DNA of 45,934 nucleotides from Betaproteobacteria bacterium (GCA_947465215.1 CANHZX010000002.1:1-45934); one strand, 5' to 3'. Shown: positions 10,046 through 40,884, counted from the stretch's first letter. The notes: generated from the sequence alone by a model not told the origin. Translations and numbers: made by a program.

Positions 10046-11488
10046 ATGAAACATTCCTTACAGCTCAGACTCTCGCAACACCTGACATTGACGCCGCAAT
10101 TGCAGCAGTCGATCAGGCTGCTGCAACTGTCGACGCTTGAGCTCAACCAGGAAATCGAACGTCTGCTACAGGACAATCCGCTGCTCGAAAGAATCGACGG
10201 CGCGTCCGACCCATCATCGCCGCAACGTGAGACGCCGCAATCCGAAAATGCCGAAATGCCCGAGGCAGCGGCCGACAACAGCGTCCAGGAGCCGGCGTCC
10301 GGCGCCGAAGAATCCGCTTCATTCGATGTCGAAGACGGCCCGTCCTACAACAGTATCAGTAGTAACGACAACGAAGATGATGACTACGCGCCGCTGGTCG
10401 AACAGCCGCCGAGTCTGAGCGCACACCTGACGGCACAGTTGTCGCTGCTCCACCTTTCGGAGCGCGACAAGCGCCTGGTTAGCCTGCTGATTGATTCTTT
10501 GAACGACGACGGGTACCTGCCGCAGAGCCTTGAAGAGATCGGCGAGATGCTGCCGCAGGAACTCGATGTCGACCAGGACGACCTGGCCATCGCTTTACAG
10601 CACCTGCAGCACCTTGAGCCGGTGGGTGTCGGCGCACGCAACCTGGCCGAATGTCTGTCGCTCCAGCTTGCTGCCATGCCGGACGACACGCCGCAGCGCG
10701 ACGCAGCACTGGAAATCGTCAGGCATCACCTGGATGTGCTGGCTGCGCGCGACTTCACGCGCCTCAAGCGCACGCTCAAATGCGACGACGACTGCCTGCG
10801 TGTCGTGCAAAAACTGATCACCAGCCTCAACCCCAAGCCGGGCCGCGATTTCTCCTCCGAGGAAACGCGGTTTGTCATCGCCGACGTCATCGTGCGCAAA
10901 ACCAAGGGCCTGTGGCTCGCAACCCTCAACCCCGACGCCATGCCGCGGCTGCGGGTCAACCGCATGTATGCCGACATCCTGCAGCGCAACCGTGGCGGCA
11001 GCGCACAACAGCTGAACTCCCAGCTGCAGGAAGCCAAGTGGCTGATCAAGAACGTGCAGCAGCGTTTCGAAACCATCCTTCGCGTGTCCCAGGCCATTGT
11101 CGACCGCCAGCGCAACTTCCTGGAACACGGTGAAGTCGCAATGCGACCGCTGGTTCTGCGGGAGATCGCGGAAACGCTGACACTGCATGAATCAACAGTG
11201 TCGCGGGTGACCACACAGAAATTCATGCACACGCCACGCGGCATTTTCGAGCTGAAATATTTTTTCGGCAGCCATGTCGCCACCGAAGCCGGCGGCGCGG
11301 CATCCAGCACCGCCATCCGCGCACTGATTAAACAGCTGGTCAGCGCAGAAAACACCCGGTCGCCGCTCAGCGACGGCCAGATTTCGGAATTGCTCGGCCA
11401 GCAGGGTATAGTGGTGGCGAGGCGCACCATTGCAAAATACCGTGAATCGATGCAAATCCTCCCGGTGAATCTCAGAAAAACGCTTTAA
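10046..11488 (+). CDS. rpoN: RNA polymerase sigma-54 factor RpoN
   Basis: Gln/Leu-rich region I ([13 protein letters not shown]), an acidic region II, and a C-terminal RpoN box ([14 protein letters not shown]). Confidence 0.97.
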
Positions 11489-11501
11489 ACAAGGAGAAGC
11501 C

Positions 11502-11831
11502 ATGAACCTGCACCTGACGGGCCACCACCTCCAGATCACTCCTGCGATCCGCGAGCATGTCGCGCACAAACTGGAAAAGATCACCGCCCACTTCGATCAC
11601 GTTATCGACATCAGCGTCATCATGACAGTGGAAAAACTCCAGCATAAAGTCGAAGGAAAGATGCACCTGAGCGGCAAGGAAATTTTCTGCGAAGCCCACA
11701 GCGAGGACATGTATGTCGCCATCGACCATCTCGTCGGCAAACTGGACCGCGCGGTGATCAAGCACAAGGAAAAGAACCTCTCCCATCGTCACGACGGCGC
11801 GCCGATAAAACACCGCGCAGTCGAAGAGTAA
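11502..11831 (+). CDS. hpf: Ribosome hibernation promoting factor (short HPF / sigma54 modulation protein)
   Basis: 109 aa. The N-terminus is MNLHLTGHHLQITPAIREHV, typical of HPF/YfiA. It lies immediately downstream of rpoN. Confidence 0.9.
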   Translation: MNLHLTGHHLQITPAIREHVAHKLEKITAHFDHVIDISVIMTVEKLQHKVEGKMHLSGKEIFCEAHSEDMYVAIDHLVGKLDRAVIKHKEKNLSHRHDGAPIKHRAVEE

Positions 11832-11864
11832 AACCGTCTCACTGAATCGCGACTCCCGCACGCC

Positions 11865-12350
11865 ATGAACCTGATTGCCAAGCTGCTGCCCGCCTCGAAC
11901 ATCCTGCTGGACACCGACCTCACCAGCAAAAAACGGGTTTTTGAGCAGGCCGGCCTGCTGTTTGAAAACAACCAGCAGGTCGCGCGCAACGTGGTCTTCG
12001 ACAGCCTGTTCGCGCGTGAAAAACTCGGCTCCACCGGTCTGGGCCAGGGTGTCGCGATTCCGCACGGCCGCATCAAGGGACTCAAGGCAGCTGCGGGGGC
12101 GATCATCCGCATGCAGAACCCGATCCCGTTTGATGCACCGGACGGCCAGAACGTGCGGCTGGCATTCGTGCTGCTCGTTCCTGAACGCGCCACTGACGAA
12201 CATCTGCAGATCCTCTCGGAACTGGCGCAGATGTTCTGCGACAAGCCCTTCCGCGAAAAACTGTTCACGGCAGCCACGCCGGATGATTTTCTCCAGTTGA
12301 TCACACAATGGGATCCCAATGCCGCAGGTCAGCATAGCCCGGCTGTTTGA
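11865..12350 (+). CDS. ptsN: Nitrogen-PTS enzyme IIA-Ntr PtsN
   Basis: The PTS EIIA type-2 active-site region is GLGQGVAIPHGRI. It sits in the conserved rpoN-hpf-ptsN position. Confidence 0.9.
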   Translation: MNLIAKLLPASNILLDTDLTSKKRVFEQAGLLFENNQQVARNVVFDSLFAREKLGSTGLGQGVAIPHGRIKGLKAAAGAIIRMQNPIPFDAPDGQNVRLAFVLLVPERATDEHLQILSELAQMFCDKPFREKLFTAATPDDFLQLITQWDPNAAGQHSPAV

Positions 12351-13263
12351 CGACACCCGCGATAAGCTGCAGCTGACGTGGGTTGCCGGTCGCGATGGCG
12401 CCGACAAGGGCCTCGACAGCGAGTTGACCAAGGACTCGTCGAAGGGTCTGGTCGGCCACCTCAACTTCATCCATCCCAACCTGATCCAGGTGCTGGGACA
12501 GTCCGAAGTCAATCACCTGAACGGCCTTGATCCGGCCGAGTGCCGGGAACTGCTGAACCGCACAGCCACCCGCGAACTCTCCTGCTTCATCATCGCCGGA
12601 GCCAACGACATACCGCCGGCGCTGCTCGAAGTCGCCGAAGCCACCCATACACCGCTGTTTACCTCGCCGATCCCCAGCGTTGAACTGATGTGGATCCTGC
12701 GTCCGCACCTCGCGCGCACGCTGGCCGATTCCACGACAGTGCATGGCGTGTTCCTCGATGTACTCGGCGTCGGCGTGCTGATCACCGGTGACTCAGGTGT
12801 CGGCAAAAGCGAACTGGCGCTGGAACTGATCAGCCGCGGTAGCGGACTGATCGCTGACGACGTGGTCGAGCTCTATCGCGTCGGCCCGGAAAGCGTAGAA
12901 GGCCGCTGCCCGTCTTTGCTGCGCGACTTTCTTGAAGTGCGTGGCCTCGGAGTACTTAACATCCGCACGATTTTCGGTGAAGCCGCGCTGCGCCCGCGAA
13001 AAAACGTAAAGATTGTCGTCCATCTCGAAAAACCCTCGGGCTCCGATCCGACTTTCCTCGACCGCCTGCCGCTCAAACCTGGTAGCGAATTGCTGATGGA
13101 GGTCGAGATCCGCAAAGTCACGATCCCGGTAGCAGCCGGCCGCAACCTCGCCGTGCTGACCGAAGCTGCAGTGCGCAACCATGTGCTGCAGATGCGCGGC
13201 ATCGACAGCACCCGGGAGTTCGTCGAACGGCAGTCGCAGGCAATGCAGAACCAAGACGACTGA
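12319..13263 (+). CDS. hprK: HPr kinase/phosphorylase
   Basis: P-loop GDSGVGKSELALELI plus the HprK signature LLEVRGLGVLNIRTIFG. It overlaps the ptsN 3' end by 32 nt. Confidence 0.9.
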   Translation: MPQVSIARLFDDTRDKLQLTWVAGRDGADKGLDSELTKDSSKGLVGHLNFIHPNLIQVLGQSEVNHLNGLDPAECRELLNRTATRELSCFIIAGANDIPPALLEVAEATHTPLFTSPIPSVELMWILRPHLARTLADSTTVHGVFLDVLGVGVLITGDSGVGKSELALELISRGSGLIADDVVELYRVGPESVEGRCPSLLRDFLEVRGLGVLNIRTIFGEAALRPRKNVKIVVHLEKPSGSDPTFLDRLPLKPGSELLMEVEIRKVTIPVAAGRNLAVLTEAAVRNHVLQMRGIDSTREFVERQSQAMQNQDD

Positions 13264-13277
13264 ACGGCGCTGATGCG

Positions 13278-14117
13278 ATGCAACTGATCCTGATCACCGG
13301 GCTTTCCGGTTCCGGCAAAAGCGTGGCACTGGCGGTCATGGAAGACGCCGGCTTCTACTGCGTCGACAATCTGCCGGTGAACATGGTCAGCTCGTTGGTT
13401 GAAACACTGCGCAACTCCGGCACTGAACGCGTCGCACTGACCATTGATGTGCGCACCGGCGAAGCCATCACAGGACTGCCCGATCTGGTGACGCGCCTGC
13501 GCGAAGACGGCGTTGAAGTACGCGTGATGTTCCTCGAAGCCAAGTCCGAAACGCTGATCAAACGCTACTCCGAGACCCGCCGCCGCCACCCGCTGTCGGC
13601 GACCGGGCTGACGCTGCCGGAATGCATCGCCCGAGAAAAGGAACTGGTCGCCGGCATTTCCGATATGGCCCACCACATCGATACCAGTGACCTTGCCCCC
13701 AACACGCTGCGCAGCTGGATCAAGGATTTCGCCGCGGCGCCGGTGGCTGGCCTGACCCTGCTGTTTGAATCCTTCGGCTTCAAGCACGGCATCCCGCTCG
13801 ATGCGGACTTCGTGTTCGATGTGCGCTGCCTACCCAATCCCCATTACGACCCACAGCTACGTCCGCTGACCGGCTGCGATGAACCGGTTGCCGCATTCCT
13901 GCGCGCGACTCCTGATGCGATGCGCATGCTGGAAGACATCAGCCGCTTCATCAGCGACTGGCTGCCGGCCTTCGAACGCGATAACCGCAGTTATCTGACC
14001 GTGGCCGTCGGCTGCACCGGCGGCCGTCACCGTTCGGTGTTTTTCGTAGAAACCCTGTCTGCGCGCTTCCGCGACCGCACCCGCACGCTCGCTCGCCACC
14101 GCGAACTCGGCGCATGA
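13278..14117 (+). CDS. rapZ: RNase adapter / nucleotide-binding protein RapZ (YhbJ)
   Basis: N-terminal Walker A GLSGSGKSVAL and a C-terminal GCTGGRHRSV motif. Confidence 0.92.
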   Translation: MQLILITGLSGSGKSVALAVMEDAGFYCVDNLPVNMVSSLVETLRNSGTERVALTIDVRTGEAITGLPDLVTRLREDGVEVRVMFLEAKSETLIKRYSETRRRHPLSATGLTLPECIAREKELVAGISDMAHHIDTSDLAPNTLRSWIKDFAAAPVAGLTLLFESFGFKHGIPLDADFVFDVRCLPNPHYDPQLRPLTGCDEPVAAFLRATPDAMRMLEDISRFISDWLPAFERDNRSYLTVAVGCTGGRHRSVFFVETLSARFRDRTRTLARHRELGA

Positions 14118-30012: not shown

Positions 30013-32196
30013 TTGCGGACGGCAAGATCCACCGTACGCATGAGCCCTTCAGCCCCCATCCCCATACCTGAAACAACCGCGCTGCCCACAGCGCCGGCGC
30101 TGTTTCAGGAATGGTCGGCTTACCTGAAGCCCGAGGATCTGTCGCAGATCCAAGCGGCTTACCATTTCAGCGAGTCAGCCCACGAGGGCCAGTTCCGCAA
30201 GTCGGGCGAGCCGTACATCGCCCACCCCCTGGCCGTGGCCAGCATCCTCGGCAAGTGGCATCTGGATTCACAGGCGCTGACCGCGGCGCTGCTGCACGAC
30301 GTCGTCGAAGACACCGAAGTCACCAAGAACGAGATCGCCGAGCAGTTCGGCCGTCCGGTGGCCGAACTGGTCGACGGCGTATCCAAACTCGATCGCATCC
30401 AGTTCGACACCCAGGAAAAGGCGCAAGCGGAAAACTTCCGCAAGATGCTGCTGGCAATGGCACGCGACGTACGCGTGATGCTGATCAAGCTCGCCGACCG
30501 TCTGCACAATATGCGCACACTGGATGCCGTGCATCCGGAAAAACGCCAGCGTATCGCGCGCGAAACCCTGGAAATCTACGCACCGATCGCCAACCGCCTG
30601 GGCCTGAACAGCATCTACCAAGAGATGGAGGACCTGTCCTTTCGCCACCTCTTCCCCGACCGTTTCCGCGTGCTGGCCAAGGCGGTACGCACCGCTCGGG
30701 GTAACCGACGTGAAGTGGTCAGCAAGGTGCTCGACGGCATCGAACGCAAGCTGCGCGAACACAACATTGAAGCGCAGGTCCAGGGTCGCGAGAAACACCT
30801 GCACTCGGTCTACCGCAAGATGCGCGAAAAGCATCTGTCCTTCGCGCAAGTGCATGACGTGTTCGGTTTCCGCATCATCGTGCGCGACAACATGGCCTGT
30901 TATGTCGCGCTGGGCCTGTTGCACAGTCTGTACAAGCCCATCCCCGGCAAGTTCAAGGATTACATCGCGATACCCAAGGCCAACGGCTACCAGTCGCTGC
31001 ACACCACGCTGTTCGGCCCCTTCGGCAGCCCGATCGAGATCCAGATCCGCACCGCCGACATGCACAAGATCGCCGAGGCCGGCGTCGCCTCGCACTGGCT
31101 CTACAAAAGTTCCGACACTTCGCTGTCGGACCTGCAGCAGAAGACCCACCAGTGGCTGCAGAGCCTGCTCGAGATGCAGTCCGAATCCGGCGACTCCATC
31201 GAATTTCTAGAACATCTGAAAGTCGACCTGTTCCCGGACGAGGTCTATGTGTTCACGCCCAAGGGCAAGATCATGTCGCTGCCGCGAGGCGCCACCGCAG
31301 TCGACTTTGCCTACGCGGTACACACCGACATCGGCAACCGCTGCGTTGCGGTCAAGATCAACCAGGAACTGACGCCGCTGCGCACCGAGCTGCGTAACGG
31401 CGACCGCGTTGAGATCATCACCGCCTCGCACGCCAAGCCCAACCCGCTGTGGCTGAACTTCGTCGCCACCGCAAAAGCACGCGCCCACATCCGCCATTTC
31501 CTGAAAACGATGCATTTTTCGGAATCGGTGCAACTGGGTAGCCGCCTGCTGCAGCAGGCCCTGTCGAATTTCAAGTTCACGCTGACCGAAGTCAGCGACG
31601 GCAAGTGGGATAAGCTGGTGCGCGACTCCAGCGCAAAATCTCGAGAGGAAATTCTTTCCGACATCGGCCTCGGCAAACGGCTGGCGGTGGTGGTCGCCCA
31701 CCAGCTGCTGGCGCGGAGCGAGCCGCTGCCCGACGAAACACGCTCCGGCGGTGCCGTGATCGTGCGCGGCTCTGAAGGTTTTGCGGTGCAGTTCGCGCGC
31801 TGCTGCGGGCCGATCCCCGGTGACCCGATCATCGGCATCATCAGCAAGGGTCAGGGCATGGTGATCCACACCCATGACTGCCCGGTTGCCGCCAAAGGCA
31901 ACCGCGACCCGGATCGCGTGCTCGACGTGCAATGGGATGCCAACCCAACCAAACTCTTCGACGTCGGCATCCGGCTTGTCGTCGCTAACCAGCGCGGCGT
32001 GCTGGCCAAAGTCGCTGCCGAAATCGCAGCGGCAGAATCGAACATTCAGAACGTCGCCGTCGATCCCGATGACGGCGGTACCTATACGGTCATGCGTTTC
32101 ACGGTGCAGGTGATGAACCGTATGCACCTGGCGCGGATCGTGCGCGATTTGCGCAAGATTCCGGAAGTGGTGCGCATCAGCCGTATCAAGGGTTGA
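30013..32196 (+). CDS. spoT: Bifunctional (p)ppGpp synthetase/hydrolase SpoT/Rel
   Basis: An intact HD hydrolase motif (HPLAVASIL...LLHDVVEDT), a RelA/SpoT synthetase domain, and TGS and ACT domains. The track start is the TTG at 30013; the ATG at 30040 is an alternative. Confidence 0.93.
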   Translation: MRTARSTVRMSPSAPIPIPETTALPTAPALFQEWSAYLKPEDLSQIQAAYHFSESAHEGQFRKSGEPYIAHPLAVASILGKWHLDSQALTAALLHDVVEDTEVTKNEIAEQFGRPVAELVDGVSKLDRIQFDTQEKAQAENFRKMLLAMARDVRVMLIKLADRLHNMRTLDAVHPEKRQRIARETLEIYAPIANRLGLNSIYQEMEDLSFRHLFPDRFRVLAKAVRTARGNRREVVSKVLDGIERKLREHNIEAQVQGREKHLHSVYRKMREKHLSFAQVHDVFGFRIIVRDNMACYVALGLLHSLYKPIPGKFKDYIAIPKANGYQSLHTTLFGPFGSPIEIQIRTADMHKIAEAGVASHWLYKSSDTSLSDLQQKTHQWLQSLLEMQSESGDSIEFLEHLKVDLFPDEVYVFTPKGKIMSLPRGATAVDFAYAVHTDIGNRCVAVKINQELTPLRTELRNGDRVEIITASHAKPNPLWLNFVATAKARAHIRHFLKTMHFSESVQLGSRLLQQALSNFKFTLTEVSDGKWDKLVRDSSAKSREEILSDIGLGKRLAVVVAHQLLARSEPLPDETRSGGAVIVRGSEGFAVQFARCCGPIPGDPIIGIISKGQGMVIHTHDCPVAAKGNRDPDRVLDVQWDANPTKLFDVGIRLVVANQRGVLAKVAAEIAAAESNIQNVAVDPDDGGTYTVMRFTVQVMNRMHLARIVRDLRKIPEVVRISRIKG

Positions 32197-34311
32197 TTGC
32201 CGATGAACGTGTCTGCACTGCCGACCCGCCTGCTGCTCGTCGAAGACGACGAAAACGACGCGATCCTGATTCTCGCTTCGCTGCGCCACGGTGGTCTGCA
32301 GATCAGCCATCGCCGGGTCTGGAGCAAGGCTGAATTGCAGGAAGCACTGACCCAGGAATCCTGGAGTGCCGTGCTCTGCGACTACAACCTGCCGCAATTT
32401 GACGGTCTCGCCGCACTGAAACTGGTGCGCGCGCATGACGCCGACATTCCCTTCATCATCGTCTCCGGCGCCATCGGCGAGGAAACCGCAGTGGCGGCAA
32501 TGCGCAGCGGCGCCCAAGACTTTGTAATGAAGCAGAGCCTGGGCCGGCTCGGCGCCGTACTGGTTCGCGAATTGAGCGAAGCCGAAATTCGCCGCGCCGC
32601 GCGCCTCGCCAGCAGCCAGCTCCAGGCCAAAGAAGCCCTGCTCGATTCCATCGTCACCACCGCGGCCGACGGCATCGCCGTGGTCAATGCCTCAGGCCTG
32701 ATCGAGTTCTCCAACCCGGCGCTGGCCACACTGACCGCGTACACGCCGGGGGAGTTGCTCGGCCTTCCGGTGAAGCAGCTGCTGCGTCCCGCGGCGGCGG
32801 CAGGCGCGGGATTCTGGGATGTGTTGTGTGAATCCACCAGCGCCATCCGTGCCGACACTACCAATCTGCAGATGCACGCGCATACCCGTAACGGCACCGT
32901 CATCCCGGTGGAAATCAAGGTCAGCCGGATGACGCTGGATGGCGCCCCAAAACTCACAGTGGTGGTGCGTGACGTCAGCGAACGTGCACGCTCCGAGGAA
33001 CGGATGTGGCGGCTGGCGCATTTCGATGAACTGTCGGGGCTACCCAACCGGTTGCTGTTCCGCCAACTGCTCGAACAGGCCATCCGCGACGCCAACCGCG
33101 AACGCAAGTCGATTGCCGTGCTGTTCATAGACCTTGACCGCTTCAAACTGATCAACGACACCGTGGGCCATGACAGCGGCGACATGGTGCTGCGCCAGGT
33201 CGCTGGCCGGCTGCGCCAGTGCCTGCGCGAAGCCGACCTGCTGTCGCGCTTCAGCGGCGACGAATTCGCCGCGCTGCTTCGCGAGATCGATGACCCGGAA
33301 GCTGCGCGCGCCAGCGCGCAGCGGGTGCTCGCCGCAGTGGCGCAGCCTTATGAGATCAACGGCGAAACCTATCACCTCTCGGCCAGTATCGGCATCAGCA
33401 TCTACCCCGGCGACAGCCCCGACGCCACCGCGCTGCTGCGCAATGCCGAACTGGCGATGTACCGCGCCAAGGACCAGGGCAAGAACAATTTCCAGTTCCA
33501 TTCACCGCAGATGAACGCGCGTTCGCTCGAATACGTGGTGTTGGAGCGCTCGCTGCGCCGTGCCATCGAACTCGATGAATTCATGGTTCATTTCCAGCCG
33601 CAATTTGATCTGACGGACGGCCGCATCGTCGGCGCGGAAGCGCTGCTGCGCTGGAATCTGCCCGAGGTCGGCATGATCCCCCCGGTCAAATTCATCCCGC
33701 TGGCCGAAGAAACCGGGTTGATCGTGCCGATCGGCCGCCTGGTGCTGATGCGCGCCTGCATGGCCGCGAAGAAATGGCAGGAATCAGGGCTCAGCAACTT
33801 CCGTGTAGCAGTGAATCTGTCGCCGCGGCAGTTCAACCAGAGCGAACTGGTCATCGACATCATCAACATCCTCAAAGATACCGGCCTGCCGCCGGAAAAT
33901 CTTGAACTGGAAATCACCGAAAGCATGGTGATGGCCAATCCGGAGGGTGCGACGGCGATCCTGCGCGAACTTCGCGCAGTCGGCGTTCATCTCGCCATCG
34001 ACGACTTCGGTACCGGATACTCTTCGCTTGGCTACCTGAAGAGTTTCCCGGTACATACGCTGAAGATCGACGGCTCCTTCATCAAGGACATCCCCGCCGA
34101 CCCCGACGACGTCGCCATCACCCAGGCGATCATCGCCATGGGCCATAGCCTGCGACTGGAAGTCGTCGCCGAAGGTGTGGAAAGCGCGGCGCAACTCGAT
34201 TTTCTGCGCAATAACGGCTGCGATTTCCTACAGGGTTATCTGGTCGGCATGCCGATGCCGGCGGAAGAATTCAACGTTCTGCTGGCCGAACGCACGCACT
34301 GGTCGCTGTAA
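32197..34311 (+). CDS. Response-regulator receiver - PAS - GGDEF(SGDEF) - EAL c-di-GMP turnover protein
   Basis: REC domain (LLLVEDDENDA...CDYNLPQFDG...FVMK) and a PAS domain. The GGDEF domain has READ-x5-SGDEF at 33226-33267. The EAL domain has the EAL motif at 33637-33645, plus DDFGTGYSSL, KIDGSFI and EGVE. It starts at the TTG at 32197 or the ATG at 32203, immediately after the spoT TGA. Confidence 0.9.
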   Translation: MPMNVSALPTRLLLVEDDENDAILILASLRHGGLQISHRRVWSKAELQEALTQESWSAVLCDYNLPQFDGLAALKLVRAHDADIPFIIVSGAIGEETAVAAMRSGAQDFVMKQSLGRLGAVLVRELSEAEIRRAARLASSQLQAKEALLDSIVTTAADGIAVVNASGLIEFSNPALATLTAYTPGELLGLPVKQLLRPAAAAGAGFWDVLCESTSAIRADTTNLQMHAHTRNGTVIPVEIKVSRMTLDGAPKLTVVVRDVSERARSEERMWRLAHFDELSGLPNRLLFRQLLEQAIRDANRERKSIAVLFIDLDRFKLINDTVGHDSGDMVLRQVAGRLRQCLREADLLSRFSGDEFAALLREIDDPEAARASAQRVLAAVAQPYEINGETYHLSASIGISIYPGDSPDATALLRNAELAMYRAKDQGKNNFQFHSPQMNARSLEYVVLERSLRRAIELDEFMVHFQPQFDLTDGRIVGAEALLRWNLPEVGMIPPVKFIPLAEETGLIVPIGRLVLMRACMAAKKWQESGLSNFRVAVNLSPRQFNQSELVIDIINILKDTGLPPENLELEITESMVMANPEGATAILRELRAVGVHLAIDDFGTGYSSLGYLKSFPVHTLKIDGSFIKDIPADPDDVAITQAIIAMGHSLRLEVVAEGVESAAQLDFLRNNGCDFLQGYLVGMPMPAEEFNVLLAERTHWSL

Positions 34312-34503
34312 CAGCCGCCACGGTCATTAATGATCGCGGCAGCCTGATTGTCGAAGGCTATCCGGATGACAAATCACTGACGCACTGCAGACTGCGCAAG
34401 ATGACCCGCCCGACTGCTACAGTGATGTCATCAAACCGGAGACCTGCGAAGACCATATCGAGGCCTCGCGCCGGAATGCCGAATACCGCCTGGTGCCGAC
34501 CTG

Positions 34504-34773
34504 TCAGCGGCGCATCCTGGAACAGGCGCTGCGCCCGTCGTTCCAGCCCATCATGTAATCGGCTTCGTCGCGAAACAGGCGGTCATCTCGACGCTGCACG
34601 CAGCCGTCCGAGTGGCCTTTTTTGTACTGTGCGGAATACCCTGCGAGATTAAAGACCGGCGGCGGATTCTGCGCGCCAGACGTGCCGCGGTTGCCGGTAG
34701 TGGTCGCACCGCAGCCAGCGAGCAGCAGCACCAGCAGGGAAGCGGCCCCGAAGCGCAGGCGCATCAACCGCAT
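34504..34773 (-). CDS. Small lipoprotein (about 89 aa)
   Basis: An internal ATG gives MRLMRLRFGAASLLVLLLAGCGATT, with a lipobox LLAGC. This ATG lies 1 nt after the upstream gene's TGA (TGAgATG). The track ORF extends further upstream and overlaps the neighbouring gene. Confidence 0.6.
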   Translation of the reverse strand: MRLMRLRFGAASLLVLLLAGCGATTTGNRGTSGAQNPPPVFNLAGYSAQYKKGHSDGCVQRRDDRLFRDEADYMMGWNDGRSACSRMRR

Positions 34774-34774
34774 C

Positions 34775-35410
34775 TCAACCGGCGACAACGAGCCGTCCGT
34801 CCCGTACGCTGATCCGCTGACCGACTCCGACTTCGGGCTGACTGGAACGGAAGGTGCGGACGGTCTGATCATCCATGCGCACGCGGATTTCATAACTGAT
34901 GGTGCGTTTCATGTTTTTCTCGATCTCGTTGCCGGCATAAGCGCCGGCACCGGCGGCGACCACGGTCATCGCCGTACGGCCATTGCCGCCACCGACCTGA
35001 TTACCCAGTATGCCACCGACAACGCCACCGGCAACTGCGCCGACTCCAGAACCCTGACCCTTGGCCTCGACCGCGTGCACCGACTCGACCACACCGCAAT
35101 CTTCGCAGCGCGCCGCTGGAGTTTTATCGTCGCCGCTGCGCTGCACCGCCGGTTTCGCGACTGCGGTTTTTTTCGGCGCCTGATGCGCCATTTCAGAATC
35201 AACAACTACCCTGCCGATTGGCGCTGCAGTCATCACCGGCTGCGATTGCGCCTGCGGCAGCAAGCCAGTCATCGCCGCAATCCCCAGCAGGCTGGCAATG
35301 ATCACGCTGATTCCTACGACCAGCAGCAACGGATACAACAGAGGCGATACCGGCCGCGCGGACAGTTGAGTGACCGGCTTACGGGTTGCGATGCTGCTGT
35401 TCATGGCCAT
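34775..35410 (-). CDS. Glycine-zipper (SlyB/17-kDa-antigen-like) domain membrane protein
   Basis: An N-terminal TM anchor (LLYPLLLVVGISVIIASLLGIAAM). The Gly-zipper GSGVGAVAGGVVGGILGNQVGGGNGRTAMTVVAAGAGAYAG is followed by a beta-rich tail (YEIRVRMDDQTVRTF). Confidence 0.8.
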   Translation of the reverse strand: MAMNSSIATRKPVTQLSARPVSPLLYPLLLVVGISVIIASLLGIAAMTGLLPQAQSQPVMTAAPIGRVVVDSEMAHQAPKKTAVAKPAVQRSGDDKTPAARCEDCGVVESVHAVEAKGQGSGVGAVAGGVVGGILGNQVGGGNGRTAMTVVAAGAGAYAGNEIEKNMKRTISYEIRVRMDDQTVRTFRSSQPEVGVGQRISVRDGRLVVAG

Positions 35411-35472
35411 CTCTCCAATGCAATAAACACGTTCGGCGACGCCCGCTAAGGGCTAAGCCTGAAGGAGTTATC

Positions 35473-35487
35473 GCAAGTAGAGTGCCA
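35473..35487 (-). promoter_or_regulatory. Sigma54 (-24/-12) promoter driving the glycine-zipper/lipoprotein pair
   Basis: The minus strand reads TGGCACtctacTTGCg, matching TGGCAC-N5-TTGC at every conserved base. The -12 element lies about 60 nt upstream of the ATG at 35410. Confidence 0.7.
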
Positions 35488-35537
35488 AAAAAATACTATT
35501 TATAAACAATTAGTTACATGGAACGTGAAATGCGGTC

Positions 35538-35555
35538 TGTCGCCGGCAAACGACG
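35538..35555. promoter_or_regulatory. Candidate enhancer-binding-protein site 1 (TGTC-N10-GACG)
   Basis: TGTCgccggcaaacGACG. The published GlrR/QseF site consensus is TGTC-N10-GACA. The site lies about 50-70 bp upstream of the -24 element. Confidence 0.45.
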
Positions 35556-35603
35556 CCGGCGTGATGACACATCCCAAGCCGCTGTTTTTAATGCCGTATT
35601 TGC

Positions 35604-35621
35604 AGTCGGCAAACAACGACG
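35604..35621. promoter_or_regulatory. Candidate enhancer-binding-protein site 2 (AGTC-N10-GACG)
   Basis: aGTCggcaaacaacGACG has the same GTC-N10-GACG architecture and the same GGCAAAC core as site 1. The two sites are 66 bp apart centre to centre. This site lies just after the activator gene stop. Confidence 0.45.
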
Positions 35622-35633
35622 CAGGGTGACCAT

Positions 35634-37013
35634 TCAGGCGCGTTGCGGTTTGAACAGCCGCGGGTCGAGCTGATGCCGCTGCAGCAATTTGTAAAACTCG
35701 GTACGGTTGCGCTTGGCCATGCGCGAAGCGTTGGTCACATTGCCCTCGGTGATTTTCAACAATTGAGCGAGGTATTCGCGTTCGAATTTGCGCCGCGCCT
35801 GCTCAAAGGAAGTGAGTTCGGTCTCCTCGTTCCGGATCGCCTGCTGCACCAGACTTGCCGGCATCAAAGGGGTTGTCGCCAGCGCCACCGACTGCTCAAT
35901 CACGTTGTAGAGCTGGCGCACATTACCTGGCCAGGCCGCGCTGACCAGTTGCTCGATCGCCTCCGGTGCGAATCCGCTGAGCACTTTTTTGTAACGTGAG
36001 GTGAGTTCATTGAGAAAATGTCCTGCGAGCAGGGGTACATCTTCACGGCGCTCGGCCAGCGACGGCAGCCGCAGCGCGACCACCTTAAGCCGGTAATACA
36101 GATCCTCGCGGAAGTTGCCCGCCGCCATTTCCTCCTCGAGATCGCGGTGCGTGGCCGAGATCACCCGAACATCCACCGGCGTGTGCTGCATGCCGCCAAC
36201 CGGCCGCACCTGCCGCTCCTGCAATACGCGCAGCAGCTTGACCTGCAGGGCAGCCGGCATGTCGCCGATTTCATCGAGCAACAGCGTGCCGCCGTCGGCC
36301 GCCATGAACAAGCCGCGGTTATCGCGTACGGCACCGGTAAACGCGCCTTTGACATGGCCGAACAGTTCGGATTCGAGCAGCGGCTCGGGAATGGCGCCGC
36401 AGTTGATCGCCACAAACGGGCGGCCGCTGCGCGGACTCGCGGCATGAATCGCACGCGCCAGCAATTCCTTGCCGGTACCGGACTCGCCCTGAATCAGGAT
36501 GGACGCGTCACCTGCGGCAACCAGCCGCGCCTTGGCCAGCACTTCCTCCATTGCCGGATTGCGGGTGATGATCGCCGAACGCCAGGACGCATCGTCATTG
36601 CCCGATTGCCCGGGTGCACCGGAGGTGGCCAACGCGCGTTCGATCTCGTCGAGCAGCGTCTTTGCATCAAAGGGTTTGGTCAGATAACCGAACACGCCGC
36701 CCTTCATCGCAGCCACCGCATCGGGAATCGTGCCATGGGCTGTAAGGATGATCACCGGCAGCGCCGGATTTTCAGCACGGATCGCCTCGAACAGCGCGAT
36801 GCCGTCCATGCCGCCCATCTGCAGATCGGTGACCACGACCTGCGGCCGCGACACTGCCAGCTGCGCCAGCGCGCGTTCACCGCTGTCCACCGCCGTCACG
36901 CCGTAGCCGGCCGCCTCGAGCCGCAGCTGCATCAGGCGCAACAACCCGGGATCGTCATCCACCACCAGTATCCGTGCACTACCCTGCGTTTTGCCATTGA
37001 TCATCGTATTCAC
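35634..37013 (-). CDS. Sigma54-dependent response regulator (REC-AAA+-HTH), QseF/GlrR-like
   Basis: REC ([11 protein letters not shown]...[12 protein letters not shown]), Walker A GESGTGKE, the GAFTGA motif, Walker [10 protein letters not shown], and a C-terminal Fis-type HTH. Confidence 0.9.
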
Positions 37014-37525
37014 CGTTTCCGTTGGACGCCGCTTTCACGCCCGGTCATGCTCCGCTCGAGTTCGAGCATCGCGTCCAGTTTCTGCTGTAATGTCTGCGCC
37101 TGACTATCCAGCCGGCGCTGTTCCTGCAGCAATCCCGTCATCAATAACGCCAAGGCCTGCAGCGGACTCGCCGCATTGCGTGTCAGTGGCTCCAGCGTTT
37201 CCAGCGCACGGATGTCATCGGCCGCCGGGGCACCGGGAACCGTCAGCGCCAGCGCATAACGCATGCGGTTGCCATCGGAGCGTGAGCGCATCAGCGCTCG
37301 ACGCGCAGCTTCCTGTTCACGCTGCAGGTCTACGCCACCGAGCCTGCGAACCTTCGCGTAGTAGGTGAGTGCGGCGCCGGGATCACCCGTGTCGACCCGC
37401 TGATCGCTGCGCAGGTCAGCAACGGCAGCCGGTTCTTCTGCAGCCTCGTTGCCGCGAAACACGCCGCAAGCGGACAGCATTAAAACCAGCAATCCTGTAC
37501 TCAGCCCTTTCAAGAACAGGCTCAT
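37010..37525 (-). CDS. Lipoprotein encoded between the kinase and regulator genes (QseG/YfhG-like position)
   Basis: Lipobox LMLSAC at the N-terminus and a helical, Gln/Leu/Arg-rich body. Four-nt ATGA overlaps occur at both ends, with the kinase stop at 37522 and the regulator start at 37013. Confidence 0.6.
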   Translation of the reverse strand: MSLFLKGLSTGLLVLMLSACGVFRGNEAAEEPAAVADLRSDQRVDTGDPGAALTYYAKVRRLGGVDLQREQEAARRALMRSRSDGNRMRYALALTVPGAPAADDIRALETLEPLTRNAASPLQALALLMTGLLQEQRRLDSQAQTLQQKLDAMLELERSMTGRESGVQRKR

Positions 37526-38967
37526 ACCGTATCCCCCTGCTGCAGCGGCAGCGTCACCCGCAGCCGTGCACCATTGCGCGACGGGTCATCCACCACCTCC
37601 ACCGTACCGCTGTGGGCCTGCGCATAATCGCGCACGATCGACAGGCCGATGCCTGACCCCGGCAGTCGCCCGCCCGAGGTATTGCGCCCGCGGTAGAACG
37701 GGTCGAAGACGCGTTCGCGTTCAGCGGGCGGAATGCCCGGTCCGTCGTCTGCGACTTCAAGCACCATCTGACCGTTCAGTGCATGGCACTCAATCACCAG
37801 CGCACTACCCTCCGGTGCGAACTTGGCTGCATTCGACACCAGGTTATCGAGCATGATCCGAACTTTTTCAAAATCCGCCTCCAGCACCACCTCGTCGATG
37901 TGCGGTGCGATGCGCAGTGCCCGTGCCCGCAAGGCCAGATTCTGATCATCAATAACACGCGCCACCACACGGCGCATTTCCACTTTGGCATAACGCACTT
38001 CGCGGCGATTGAATTCTGCTGCGCCGTACGACAGCAGGTCTTCAATCAGTCGCTGTAGCTCGATGCTGTTGGCGCGCAGAATTCCTGCAACCTCGTGCTG
38101 CTGCGGCGTCAGTTTTCCCAGCGCTTCCTCAGCAAGCAGTTCCGATCCCTCGCGCAGCGCGGTCAGTGGGGTTTTCAGTTCGTGGGACACCTGGCGCAGG
38201 AAGCGGTTCTTCTGCTGCTCCAGTTCCGTCAGGCGGTGGCGCAACCATTCGATGCGCCGGCCGAGCAGTTGCAGATCGCGCGGGCCGCTGACGCCGACAG
38301 GCGCGGAAAAATCACCGCCGCCCATGCGTCGCAGCGCGGCATCAATCTGGCGAATCGGCCGCGCGATCAGTACGGTAAATCCCGCCGCTAGCAGAAATGC
38401 CACCGGCACCAGCGCCAGCATCTGCCAGAAGGTGATGCGCTGCGCACGCCCGGCCATATGCCGCATCGCCTCGATTTCGCGGTCGATAACCCGGTCGCCA
38501 TGGGCAATGATTTCGACGGCGTGAGTATTCAGCCTGGCGTAGGCGCCTGCAGCACGTGCGACATCCGCAGTCGCCGCTGCCGGGTTACCCAGCACCGCGT
38601 AACTCTCCGCCTCGCCGCCGACGATCGCGGTCAAGGCCACCCTTTGCTCCTCATCGAGCGGCAATGCGCCGAACTCGGCAGCGGCCTGAAGAAAGGAATC
38701 GCGATTGGCCTCATAGGCCTTCAGTGGCGTGCGGTTGCCGAGAATCACCACCTGGCGCGCGTTGCGCTCCAGCGCAGCCAGCAGTTCGGCCAGACGCCGG
38801 CTCGACTGTGTTGACTGCACGGCCTGGTGGACGGCATGCTGGCTGCGGTTGGCAAACTGGTCGATCGAAATAGCGTTGTTGATCAGCGCGATGATCAGCG
38901 GTAACGCCACCATCGCAAAGCCGATGACAAGCAGCTTGGGGAATGAGTCAGGCTGCAGCAGACGCAT
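37522..38967 (-). CDS. Sensor histidine kinase (2 TM, periplasmic domain, HAMP, HisKA, HATPase), QseE/GlrK-like
   Basis: H-box SHELKTPLTAL, N-box DNLVSNAAKFAP, G1 VADDGPGIP and G2 GSGIGLSIV. Two TM segments flank a domain of about 150 aa. Confidence 0.88.
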   Translation of the reverse strand: MRLLQPDSFPKLLVIGFAMVALPLIIALINNAISIDQFANRSQHAVHQAVQSTQSSRRLAELLAALERNARQVVILGNRTPLKAYEANRDSFLQAAAEFGALPLDEEQRVALTAIVGGEAESYAVLGNPAAATADVARAAGAYARLNTHAVEIIAHGDRVIDREIEAMRHMAGRAQRITFWQMLALVPVAFLLAAGFTVLIARPIRQIDAALRRMGGGDFSAPVGVSGPRDLQLLGRRIEWLRHRLTELEQQKNRFLRQVSHELKTPLTALREGSELLAEEALGKLTPQQHEVAGILRANSIELQRLIEDLLSYGAAEFNRREVRYAKVEMRRVVARVIDDQNLALRARALRIAPHIDEVVLEADFEKVRIMLDNLVSNAAKFAPEGSALVIECHALNGQMVLEVADDGPGIPPAERERVFDPFYRGRNTSGGRLPGSGIGLSIVRDYAQAHSGTVEVVDDPSRNGARLRVTLPLQQGDTV

Positions 38968-39038
38968 GATTTATTGTTGTTTCAATCCGGTCGCGACGCG
39001 GCGAATACTGCCGGCGGCGCGCAATGCTGCGGGCACTG

Positions 39039-39647
39039 TCAGGCGCCCGACTTGTTCTTTTCTTCCAGCACCTTGATCAGGCCGTCAATGCCGGAGCGCG
39101 TGATCTCGCTGTTGAACGTACCGCGGTAATTGATCACCAAGCTGGCATTTTCAGCAACGATGTCGGTCACTTTCCATGCCTTGTCGACCAGTGCCATGCG
39201 GTAATCGATGGCCAGCGGCGGACGCCCGGATTCTTTGACCACGGTACGCACCGTCGCGTAATCCTCACCGGGTTTCATCTGCAGCGGCTTGACTTCGACC
39301 TTGCGCTCGACACCGGCGGTTTCAGCCAGTGCGGTGGTATAGGTGCGGACCAGCAGCGTGCGGAAAGCATTTTCCAGCGCCTTCTGTTGCGCCGGCGTTG
39401 CGTCCCGCCAGGCTTTTCCCATCGCCAGCTGGGTCATCGCACGAAAATCAAAATGCGGGAGCACTTTCTTTTCGACAATATCCTGCAGCCCGCGGCGGTC
39501 CTTGTTCTGCTTGAGTACGCCAAGTACGTCCTCGACCGTCGTGCGGACCAGCACATCCGGCGCAGTCGGGACCGCAGTCTGTGCATGTGCGAGCGGCGCA
39601 AACAGCGAAACCGCCGCCATCAACAGCGTGGTAATCAGTTTTTTCAT
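39039..39647 (-). CDS. MlaC/Ttg2D-family phospholipid-binding periplasmic protein (orphan, with no mlaFEDB nearby)
   Basis: Signal peptide MKKLITTLLMAAVSLFAPLAHA, then FDFRAMTQLAMGKAW...WKVTDIVAENASLVINYRGTF, the typical MlaC pattern. A GGGGAGA Shine-Dalgarno sequence precedes the ATG at 39647. Confidence 0.8.
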   Translation of the reverse strand: MKKLITTLLMAAVSLFAPLAHAQTAVPTAPDVLVRTTVEDVLGVLKQNKDRRGLQDIVEKKVLPHFDFRAMTQLAMGKAWRDATPAQQKALENAFRTLLVRTYTTALAETAGVERKVEVKPLQMKPGEDYATVRTVVKESGRPPLAIDYRMALVDKAWKVTDIVAENASLVINYRGTFNSEITRSGIDGLIKVLEEKNKSGA

Positions 39648-39816
39648 GATGAGTCTCCCCCTGCCCGTTAACGATACGCGGATTAGGCAGGCGCACACCA
39701 TGAATTGTTCCACAAGCGGGAAAAAAGACTTGCCCGGAAGGTGCGGAATATCACGTTACAGCCTGTCCAGAACCGGCCGCAGCGTTAAAGTGTCGCCGTC
39801 AGGCAACAAATCGCGC

Positions 39817-40884
39817 TTAACGAGCTAGTTTGGTGATCTTCAGGTCAGCGGCCAGCTGATCAAGCGCTGCGAGCAGCGCCTGCGGCATCGGAACGCCGTT
39901 CTTCTCGCGATCAGCACGTGCAGTGTGCGTACCTTCGCCAGGAAGGCGGATGCGGTCGACATTAGGCAGGCGCTGTGAATTGCGGATATCACGGATCAGC
40001 GTATCCATGCCCTGCTTGAATTCCTTCAGGTCCTGGAAGGCTTCAACATTGATCGCCACAATCGTGTGACCGGTGTTGGTTTCGGTGGTGTCGTCGTTGT
40101 TGAAATCAACAACATCCTTGCCCATCGAAGCGGCATTGAGATTGCCGGCGAGCAAGCCCATGACCAGCGCGAGACCATAACCCTTGTAGCCGCCGATCGG
40201 CAGCAGGAACCCTTCATTGGCGCGTTTCGGATCAGTCAGCGGATTGCCCTGACGATCCATCATCCACCCTTCAGGCATCATTTCGCCGCGCTGTGCCTTG
40301 GTTTTGACCTTGCCGTAGGCCGCCACGGTAGTCGCCATGTCGAGAATGATCGCCGGCTCTTCACCGGCCGGCACCGCTACCGCAATCGGGTTCGTCGACA
40401 GCAGCATGTCGAGACCGCCCCAAGGCGGCAGATGGTTGGCGCTGCCCACGGCCATGTAAAGACCGATCATGTTATGCGCCAGAGGCATGCTCGCATACAG
40501 CGAAGCCGGCCCGGCGTGATTGCTCCAGCGCGCACCGACCCAGGCCACGCCCGCAGTCTTCGCTTTTTCAATGGCTTTTTCAGTGGCGAATTTCATCACC
40601 AGATGGCCCATGCCGTTGTCGCCATGCACCAGCGCCATGCCGGCCATTTCGCGCTCGACGCGGATGTTCGGCTTCACATTGACTGCACCGCCCTTGATGC
40701 GGCGGATGTACTGCGGCAGACGGAAAATGCCGTGGCCCTCTGAGCCATTGATGTCGGCCTGCGCCATCAATTGCGCAATGGCTTTGGCATCGTCGCGCGG
40801 AATTGCAACTGCTTCGAAGGAGGCCGCGATGAAGGCGCGCAGTTTGTCGCCGGAAATCCGCTGTTGCTGTTTCTGTTCAGCCAC
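39817..40884 (-). CDS. Ldh_2-family (malate/L-lactate/sulfolactate dehydrogenase type 2) oxidoreductase
   Basis: The motif GSEGHGIFRLPQYIRRIKGG and the overall 355-aa pattern are typical of the Ldh_2 family. Confidence 0.85.
   Translation of the reverse strand: MAEQKQQQRISGDKLRAFIAASFEAVAIPRDDAKAIAQLMAQADINGSEGHGIFRLPQYIRRIKGGAVNVKPNIRVEREMAGMALVHGDNGMGHLVMKFATEKAIEKAKTAGVAWVGARWSNHAGPASLYASMPLAHNMIGLYMAVGSANHLPPWGGLDMLLSTNPIAVAVPAGEEPAIILDMATTVAAYGKVKTKAQRGEMMPEGWMMDRQGNPLTDPKRANEGFLLPIGGYKGYGLALVMGLLAGNLNAASMGKDVVDFNNDDTTETNTGHTIVAINVEAFQDLKEFKQGMDTLIRDIRNSQRLPNVDRIRLPGEGTHTARADREKNGVPMPQALLAALDQLAADLKITKLAR

Follow-up and report, generated by a model that had tools for sequence, protein, structure and literature searches.

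To our knowledge, work on the QseE/QseF (GlrK/GlrR) system has been confined almost entirely to Enterobacteriaceae, in which the known direct targets of QseF/GlrR are glmY, glmZ, and an rpoE promoter. In Enterobacteria, the gene for the glycine-zipper protein SlyB is activated by PhoPQ, PhoP being a regulator of the OmpR type. The glmY and glmZ promoters of E. coli and Yersinia are governed by GlrR/QseF and sigma-54 together with IHF. For E. coli glmY, the activator-binding sites ABS2 and ABS3 are reported to be the essential ones, and IHF to be required (PMC3045617). In glmY of E. coli K-12, ABS1, ABS2 (TGTCGCTTTCTGGCGACA; TGTCGC-N6-GCGACA), and ABS3 are placed at -221.5, -188.5, and -125.5, respectively, IHF-type sites are found at about -177 and -58, and the promoter reads TGGCAC-N5-CTGCA. 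Clusters of qseEGF are widespread in Beta- and Gammaproteobacteria and Acidithiobacillia; their flanking genes have been treated as non-conserved, and no promoter or target was described for them (PMC12691602). A literature search on QseF/GlrR targets outside Enterobacteriaceae and on rpoN-dependent glycine-zipper genes, incomplete in coverage and hence absence of evidence only, returned nothing relevant.

The present analysis concerns a window of 45,934 nt, i.e., the whole stretch of DNA analyzed, to which all coordinates refer. Its source is an uncultured lineage of Burkholderiales, known from metagenome bins alone. The window harbors a locus on the minus strand in which a kinase, a lipoprotein, and a regulator are encoded in this order (Table 1). 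The kinase showed 33% identity to E. coli GlrK over 454 residues (E 5e-64), and the sensor-domain arginines corresponding to GlrK R70 and R73 were found to be retained (ERNARQ vs. ERSYRQ). These residues have been reported as QseG contacts in a structural study (PMC12691602). For the lipoprotein, Pfam gave no family and a plain BLASTP comparison with QseG was negative; a profile of 19 orthologues aligned with the C-terminal part of E. coli QseG (hhalign 84.6%, E 6.8e-6), including the motif QQKLDAL..LER. The regulator had been described in the initial annotation as a QseF/GlrR-like protein encoded directly upstream of the promoter. This assignment was borne out by the protein comparisons: GlrR was the best NCBIfam family with 636.6 bits, which lies below the equivalog cut-off of 763, followed by NtrC with 422, and the full-length protein shared 59% identity and an identical recognition helix with E. 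coli GlrR. On the basis of the gene order, the GlrK-like kinase, and the QseG-like lipoprotein, the locus could be classed as a qseE-qseG-qseF-type locus, and the synteny supports the probable orthology of the regulator to GlrR. The described qseEGF clusters (PMC12691602) are similar in gene order, in the QseG-contact arginines, and in the C-terminal QseG motif; the difference is that the flanking gene in the window carries the predicted operator of the regulator itself.

Table 1. Coordinates of the features of the locus and of rpoN, numbered on the 45,934-nt window.
Feature	Position	Strand	Remarks
rpoN (sigma-54)	10046..11488	plus	Pfam Sigma54_AID, CBD, DBD; NCBIfam RpoN 721.7 bits, above the cut-off of 621
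Sensor histidine kinase, QseE/GlrK-like	37522..38967	minus	Pfam HAMP, HisKA, HATPase_c; 33% identical to E. coli GlrK
171-aa lipoprotein, QseG-like, between kinase and regulator genes	37010..37525	minus	Lipobox LSAC; profile match to QseG
Sigma-54-dependent response regulator, QseF/GlrR-like, probable activator	35634..37013	minus	Pfam Response_reg, Sigma54_activat, AAA lid
Regulator stop TGA	35636-35634	minus	Sequence read
Distal activator site (site 1), cGTC-gttgtttgcc-GACt (cGTC-N10-GACt)	35604..35621	minus	Putative; centre about -151.5; GTC and GAC invariant in the 24-sequence alignment
IHF-like site 1, AAACAGCGGCTTG	35575..35587	minus	Centre about -120; between both activator sites; conserved island in the alignment
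Proximal activator site (site 2), cGTC-gtttgccggc-GACa (cGTCG-N8-CGACa)	35538..35555	minus	Putative; centre about -85.5; GTCG and GAC invariant in the alignment
IHF-like site 2, AAACAATTAGTTA	35504..35516	plus	Centre about -49; inside the AT-rich stretch
Sigma-54 promoter, TGGCAC-tctac-TTGC (-24/-12)	35473..35487	minus	Exact TGGCAC-N5-TTGC; GG and GC ten bases apart
Shine-Dalgarno GGAGAG	35411..35416	minus	GGAGA majority fraction 0.89; 7 nt before ATG 35404
ATG codons	35410 and 35404	minus	Second is the conserved start
Predicted target gene 1, 209-aa SlyB-like glycine-zipper protein with N-terminal membrane helix	34775..35404	minus	Pfam PF05433, 33 bits (cut-off 24.2)
Predicted target gene 2, 89-aa predicted lipoprotein	34504..34773	minus	Lipobox LLAGC; start 1 nt after gene 1 stop

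The gap downstream of the regulator stop (35411-35633, 223 bp, read on the minus strand) had been annotated with four elements, namely, two activator sites, an AT-rich stretch, and a near-perfect -24/-12 promoter. Every coordinate proved right on reading the sequence. The promoter is the sole exact match to TGGCAC-N5-TTGC in the window, is correctly oriented, and lies 68 nt upstream of the conserved ATG; the predicted start, by spacing borrowed from E. coli glmY, is 35460-35461. The presence of rpoN in the same window, also claimed initially, was confirmed by Pfam and NCBIfam matches. Two conserved IHF-like sites had been overlooked. Comparison with the IHF consensus WATCAR-N4-TTR placed one of them, AAACAGCGGCTTG, which fits except at position 3, between the two activator sites, and the other, AAACAATTAGTTA, inside the AT-rich stretch (35525-35488), which is itself present as described. 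As to the activator sites, the spacing of the E. coli operator TGTC-N10-GACA had been recognized correctly: both match the GTC-N10-GAC core without deviation, with just one outer T/A base out of four retained. The sites had been noted in plus-strand reading, which is immaterial because they are inverted repeats. The proposed common GGCAAAC core did not hold: the heptamer, GTTTGCC on the gene strand, occupies spacer positions 4-10 in site 1 and 1-7 in site 2, and in site 2 it is not kept in relatives. It was rejected as a functional element and ascribed to a coincidence of register.

The two predicted IHF sites complete a site-IHF-site-IHF-promoter order similar to that of E. coli glmY, in which ABS2, IHF, ABS3, IHF, and the sigma-54 promoter follow one another, and in both cases the IHF-type sites flank the proximal activator site. 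The centres of the window sites (-151.5 and -85.5) are 66 bp apart, comparable to the 63 bp between ABS2 and ABS3. The GTC-N10-GAC inverted-repeat core is common to both systems, as is the position of the promoter next to a kinase-lipoprotein-regulator locus whose regulators share the same recognition helix. In contrast, E. coli has three activator sites and the window two, and the window sites are nearer to the promoter (-151/-86 vs. -188/-125 in E. coli). The module is placed after the regulator gene (qseF) in the window and before the kinase gene (qseE) in E. coli. Unlike E. coli glmY, where a sigma-70 promoter overlaps, no such promoter was found in the window module. The product also differs, being a protein-coding envelope operon in the window and a small RNA in E. 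coli.

Conservation was examined by scanning the regulator protein against one genome per species, which returned 79 loci, mostly of uncultured freshwater and soil Burkholderiales. A module, defined as TGGCAY-N5-TTGC with at least one exact GTC-N10-GAC site upstream and following the regulator gene, was present 3' of the regulator gene in 41 of the 79 loci, with regulator identities of 58-98%. It was absent from all of the 11 loci with regulators that are 39-46% identical (paralogues). Across the 42 loci including the window, TGGCAY-N5-TTGC is kept, and the consensus of the proximal site, yGTCGyy-N4-rGCGACr, resembles and is fitted by ABS2 of E. coli glmY. Of the 37 two-site loci, the window being counted, 31 have their sites 65 or 66 bp apart. 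An IHF-like site was observed at -49 to -52 in 32 of the 42 loci and at the position of IHF-like site 1 (about -120) in 23 of 37, a strong enrichment at both positions over a background of 0.013 per 48 bp. More distant relatives carry the canonical AATCAA/TATCAA-N4-TTA at IHF-like site 2.

The window was further aligned with 23 close relatives, giving 24 sequences picked for carrying exact sites. The mean column identity was 57%, and 29 of the 30 invariant intergenic columns fell inside the named elements. The majority fraction was 1.00 for the half-sites, where it is inflated because the aligned loci were picked for exact sites, and likewise 1.00 for TTGC, followed by 0.92 for TGGCAC, a mean of 0.85 for IHF-like site 2, and 0.54 for the remaining intergenic columns. 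The selection for exact sites does not build in the invariance of the promoter, in which TGG, A, and TTGC are invariant, or that of the IHF-like islands and the ribosome-binding site. Relative to the predicted start, the site centres lie at about -151 and -86 in the 24 aligned sequences, and at about -150 to -154 and -86 to -89 in relatives with at least 84% regulator identity. In the latter group, the distance from the regulator stop to the first site varied from 3 to 70 nt. As the distance to the promoter is fixed and that to the stop codon is variable, the sites are part of the promoter and not of the regulator gene's 3' end. In the initial annotation, a lack of conserved half-sites in orthologous intergenic regions had been named as an outcome speaking against the promoter; the half-sites were instead found to be conserved at a fixed distance from it. 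Deviating loci also followed the pattern in part: among the close relatives, L044 has no exact site, yet both sites are there with one mismatch each at the expected offsets, and L020 and L066 have lost the distal site; in L023, L024, and L025, the proximal site was found with one mismatch where expected. The comparison supports the presence in the gap of a real, evolutionarily conserved sigma-54 promoter with two predicted regulator sites and two IHF-like sites.

On the evidence of sequence and its conservation, it is very likely that a two-gene envelope operon is transcribed from an enhancer-dependent sigma-54 promoter in the gap, activated by the QseF/GlrR-like regulator with the help of IHF. 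In this scheme, sigma-54 RNA polymerase would bind TGGCAC-N5-TTGC as a closed complex. The QseE-like kinase, modulated by the QseG-like lipoprotein, would phosphorylate the regulator, which would bind both GTC-N10-GAC repeats at about -151 and -86. IHF would bend the DNA at the IHF-like sites at about -120 and -49, and the AAA+ ATPase of the regulator would then open the promoter, with transcription of the envelope operon from about 35460-35461. The inducing signal is presumably envelope stress.

An alternative explanation is that the promoter is real and is activated by a different enhancer-binding protein, the repeats being bound by an unrelated factor or idle. Such a reading would accommodate the window half-sites, in which three outer bases out of four depart from TGTC/GACA, as well as the score of the regulator under the GlrR equivalog cut-off (636.6 vs. 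763). However, the repeats are linked to the regulator family across lineages, being placed 3' of the regulator gene in most and beyond the kinase gene in Rhodocyclaceae-type loci, and are missing beside the 11 paralogues of 39-46% identity, the recognition helix matches that of E. coli GlrR exactly, and E. coli ABS2 fits a consensus derived from these loci. In addition, no second enhancer-binding protein gene was found among the window ORFs examined. Activation by another protein is hence considered improbable.

The palindromes could also be viewed not as DNA sites for a protein but as hairpins in RNA that terminate or stabilize the regulator transcript at its 3' end, a reading prompted by their location directly after the stop codon and by the complementary CGCCGGC/GCCGGCG arms that window site 2 happens to hold. 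This appears very improbable, as conservation is limited to the outer GTC/GAC and adjacent bases and the 10-nt spacers are non-complementary. There is no T-run after the palindromes, and a terminator scan of the minus strand between 34200 and 35700 found no terminator-like site. The variable distance from the stop codon in close relatives, set against the fixed distance from the promoter, argues in the same direction, and in some lineages the pair is located upstream of the kinase gene and not 3' of the regulator gene. The missing terminator between the regulator gene and the promoter implies that read-through could also express the operon.

Taken singly, the listed elements are statistically weak, and it is the conservation that decides. 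For the exact promoter sequence, one match was counted in the 45.9-kb window and 0.32 were expected, with at least one match being obtained in 28 of 100 shuffles. By itself, within one window, the match is not significant. For GTC-N10-GAC, 14 matches were seen in the window against 10.8 expected; two of the 14 fall in the 223-bp gap, for which about 0.05 are expected. The joint chance of two sites and a correctly oriented promoter in this gap is near 1e-6 by arithmetic on the window counts. Chance matches in an ordinary intergenic gap, which the 28% of shuffles giving a promoter match per window and the unexceptional whole-window GTC-N10-GAC count would allow, are a negligible explanation given that 41 related loci show all the elements in a fixed arrangement amid diverged flanking sequence. 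One further match, GTCGCCGCTCAGCGAC at 11359-11374 (plus strand), lies inside rpoN at the 3' end and agrees with the extended operator consensus. It was rejected as an operator, being a single site in coding sequence, at chance rate and without a sigma-54 motif nearby; the other matches outside the gap, likewise single coding-sequence sites at chance rate, were also rejected.

The operon predicted to be under sigma-54 and QseF/GlrR-like control begins with a glycine-zipper gene, the start of which had been placed at the ATG at 35410. The alignment of the 24 relatives keeps GGAGA-N7-ATG at 35404 instead, so the protein is probably 209 residues long and not the 211 of the mechanical ORF listing. 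It consists of a short cytoplasmic tail of 20 residues, a hydrophobic helix, a linker, a CEDC motif at about residue 100 that provides the first cysteines, a glycine-zipper 2TM domain, and a C-terminal domain. Residues 103-199, comprising the zipper and the C-terminal domain, matched the solved structure of SlyB (7ojf) with an E-value of 7e-11. As no lipobox was found in the N-terminal sequence, the protein is SlyB-like, yet not a SlyB-type lipoprotein. The second gene, for a predicted lipoprotein, has no Pfam family; it directly follows the glycine-zipper gene in close relatives, in which the pair is kept 3' of the regulator gene. Relatives whose regulators are as little as 64% identical still have the glycine-zipper gene after the regulator gene. 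The arrangement is similar to PhoPQ and slyB in combining a two-component system, in the window one presumed to sense the envelope, with a glycine-zipper protein of the SlyB type. It differs in that the regulator is a sigma-54 enhancer-binding protein and not of the OmpR type, and in that the lipoprotein signal is replaced in the window protein by a membrane helix at the N-terminus and a CxxC motif.

A small RNA of the GlmY/GlmZ type was considered as the product of the promoter and rejected, as there was no Rfam match and the predicted transcript begins a protein-coding operon. Rfam gave no match over 34000-40000 even at E-values up to 1, and at gathering thresholds the whole window contained one tRNA only and no GlmY/GlmZ-like RNA. 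The 57-nt 5' leader showed no structure beyond that of shuffled sequences (z 0.06). On the plus strand, a 275-aa ORF (34622-35449) overlaps the glycine-zipper gene in antisense. Since the Pfam domain and the conserved homologues belong to the minus-strand frame, this ORF is probably a spurious one of high-GC sequence. At 30013-34311 (plus strand), a 727-aa ORF of RelA/SpoT length and, directly after it, a gene for a response-regulator-PAS-GGDEF-EAL protein (32197-34311) converge on the glycine-zipper operon.

The genes behind the module were observed to vary among lineages. At 71-79% regulator identity (L023:5561-6058, L024:5644-6138, L026:3634-4140, and L030:5593-6087), another first gene, encoding a secreted protein of about 165 residues with two EF-hands and a BON domain, is located between the promoter and the glycine-zipper gene. 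The module precedes genes for family-2 glycosyltransferases in L040 and L056 and for a GNAT/FeeM-like protein in L043. In seven loci of the Rhodocyclaceae/Propionivibrio/Accumulibacter type (L041, L047, L051, L052, L053, L055, and L065), two sites 65-66 bp apart are present about 2.3 kb upstream of the regulator start, on the opposite strand, upstream of the kinase gene and pointing away from it (divergent). Five of the seven (L041, L047, L052, L055, and L065) carry the promoter TGGCAC-N5-ATCGC, and the target is a protein of about 210 residues beginning with MFNKS..FNRNDP.

In four loci of Nitrococcus and Arhodomonas (L034:5850-6040, L036:5850-6039, L037:5842-6041, and L048:5530-5660), no ORF was found behind the QseF-type sites and the sigma-54-like promoter located after qseF. 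What comes next is a stretch, 100-165 nt long, that closes with a 13-bp stem, its C-rich loop, AGCCCCGTCACCCCCTCATTCCGG, being invariant, and with a T-run. Neither GlmY/GlmZ nor any other family was matched in Rfam. With four sequences and no covariation, the stretch is a candidate for a QseF-dependent small RNA outside Enterobacteriaceae. Similarly, in L033:3868-4070, L039:3643-3870, and L068:5541-5690, the module is followed 100-215 nt downstream by a terminator-like hairpin with no convincing ORF; these may be further non-coding targets.

Overall, the distribution links the operator with the regulator family and suggests that the regulon is local and lineage-variable. The cargo in the loci examined includes the SlyB-like protein with the small lipoprotein (window), the EF-hand/BON protein, and family-2 glycosyltransferases, and in Ectothiorhodospiraceae-type genomes an apparently non-coding predicted transcript with a conserved C-rich terminal hairpin, unrelated to GlmY/GlmZ. 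It could be proposed, tentatively and with the odds slightly against it, that QseE-QseG-QseF systems outside Enterobacteriaceae have as their direct, and possibly ancestral, output a self-adjacent sigma-54/IHF module whose cargo varies with lineage and is always envelope-related or a small RNA. If true, the enterobacterial GlmY link would be one lineage-specific version of an older envelope-stress circuit.

The element belongs to a fully known type; the novelty concerns its target and lineage, together with a hint on qseEGF control where GlmY/GlmZ are absent. As the mechanism is textbook, the gain lies in regulon content and evolution and not in a new principle. The window and its relatives provide a concrete predicted QseF target, the operon of a SlyB-like envelope protein, along with a refined operator consensus, i.e., yGTCGyy-N4-rGCGACr in two sites 65-66 bp apart with two IHF sites. 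With this consensus, QseF regulons could be predicted across whole genomes, both in uncultured freshwater Burkholderiales and more widely.

Two neighborhoods in the window deserve mention. The cluster at 10046-14117 (plus strand) comprises rpoN, a ptsN-like EIIA gene (11865-12350), hprK (12319-13263), and a RapZ-like gene (13278-14117), the last being present though no GlmY/GlmZ is detectable within the window. RapZ of E. coli is described as signaling to QseE/QseF (PMC7073468). An MlaC-family gene (39039-39713, minus strand) directly precedes the kinase gene, as it does in L023. A motif scan of the window found no second module ahead of the kinase gene or the MlaC-like gene. The MlaC-like gene of L023, in contrast to its window equivalent, has its own two-site sigma-54 module (L023:1023-1190), which suggests autoregulation of the whole operon in that locus.
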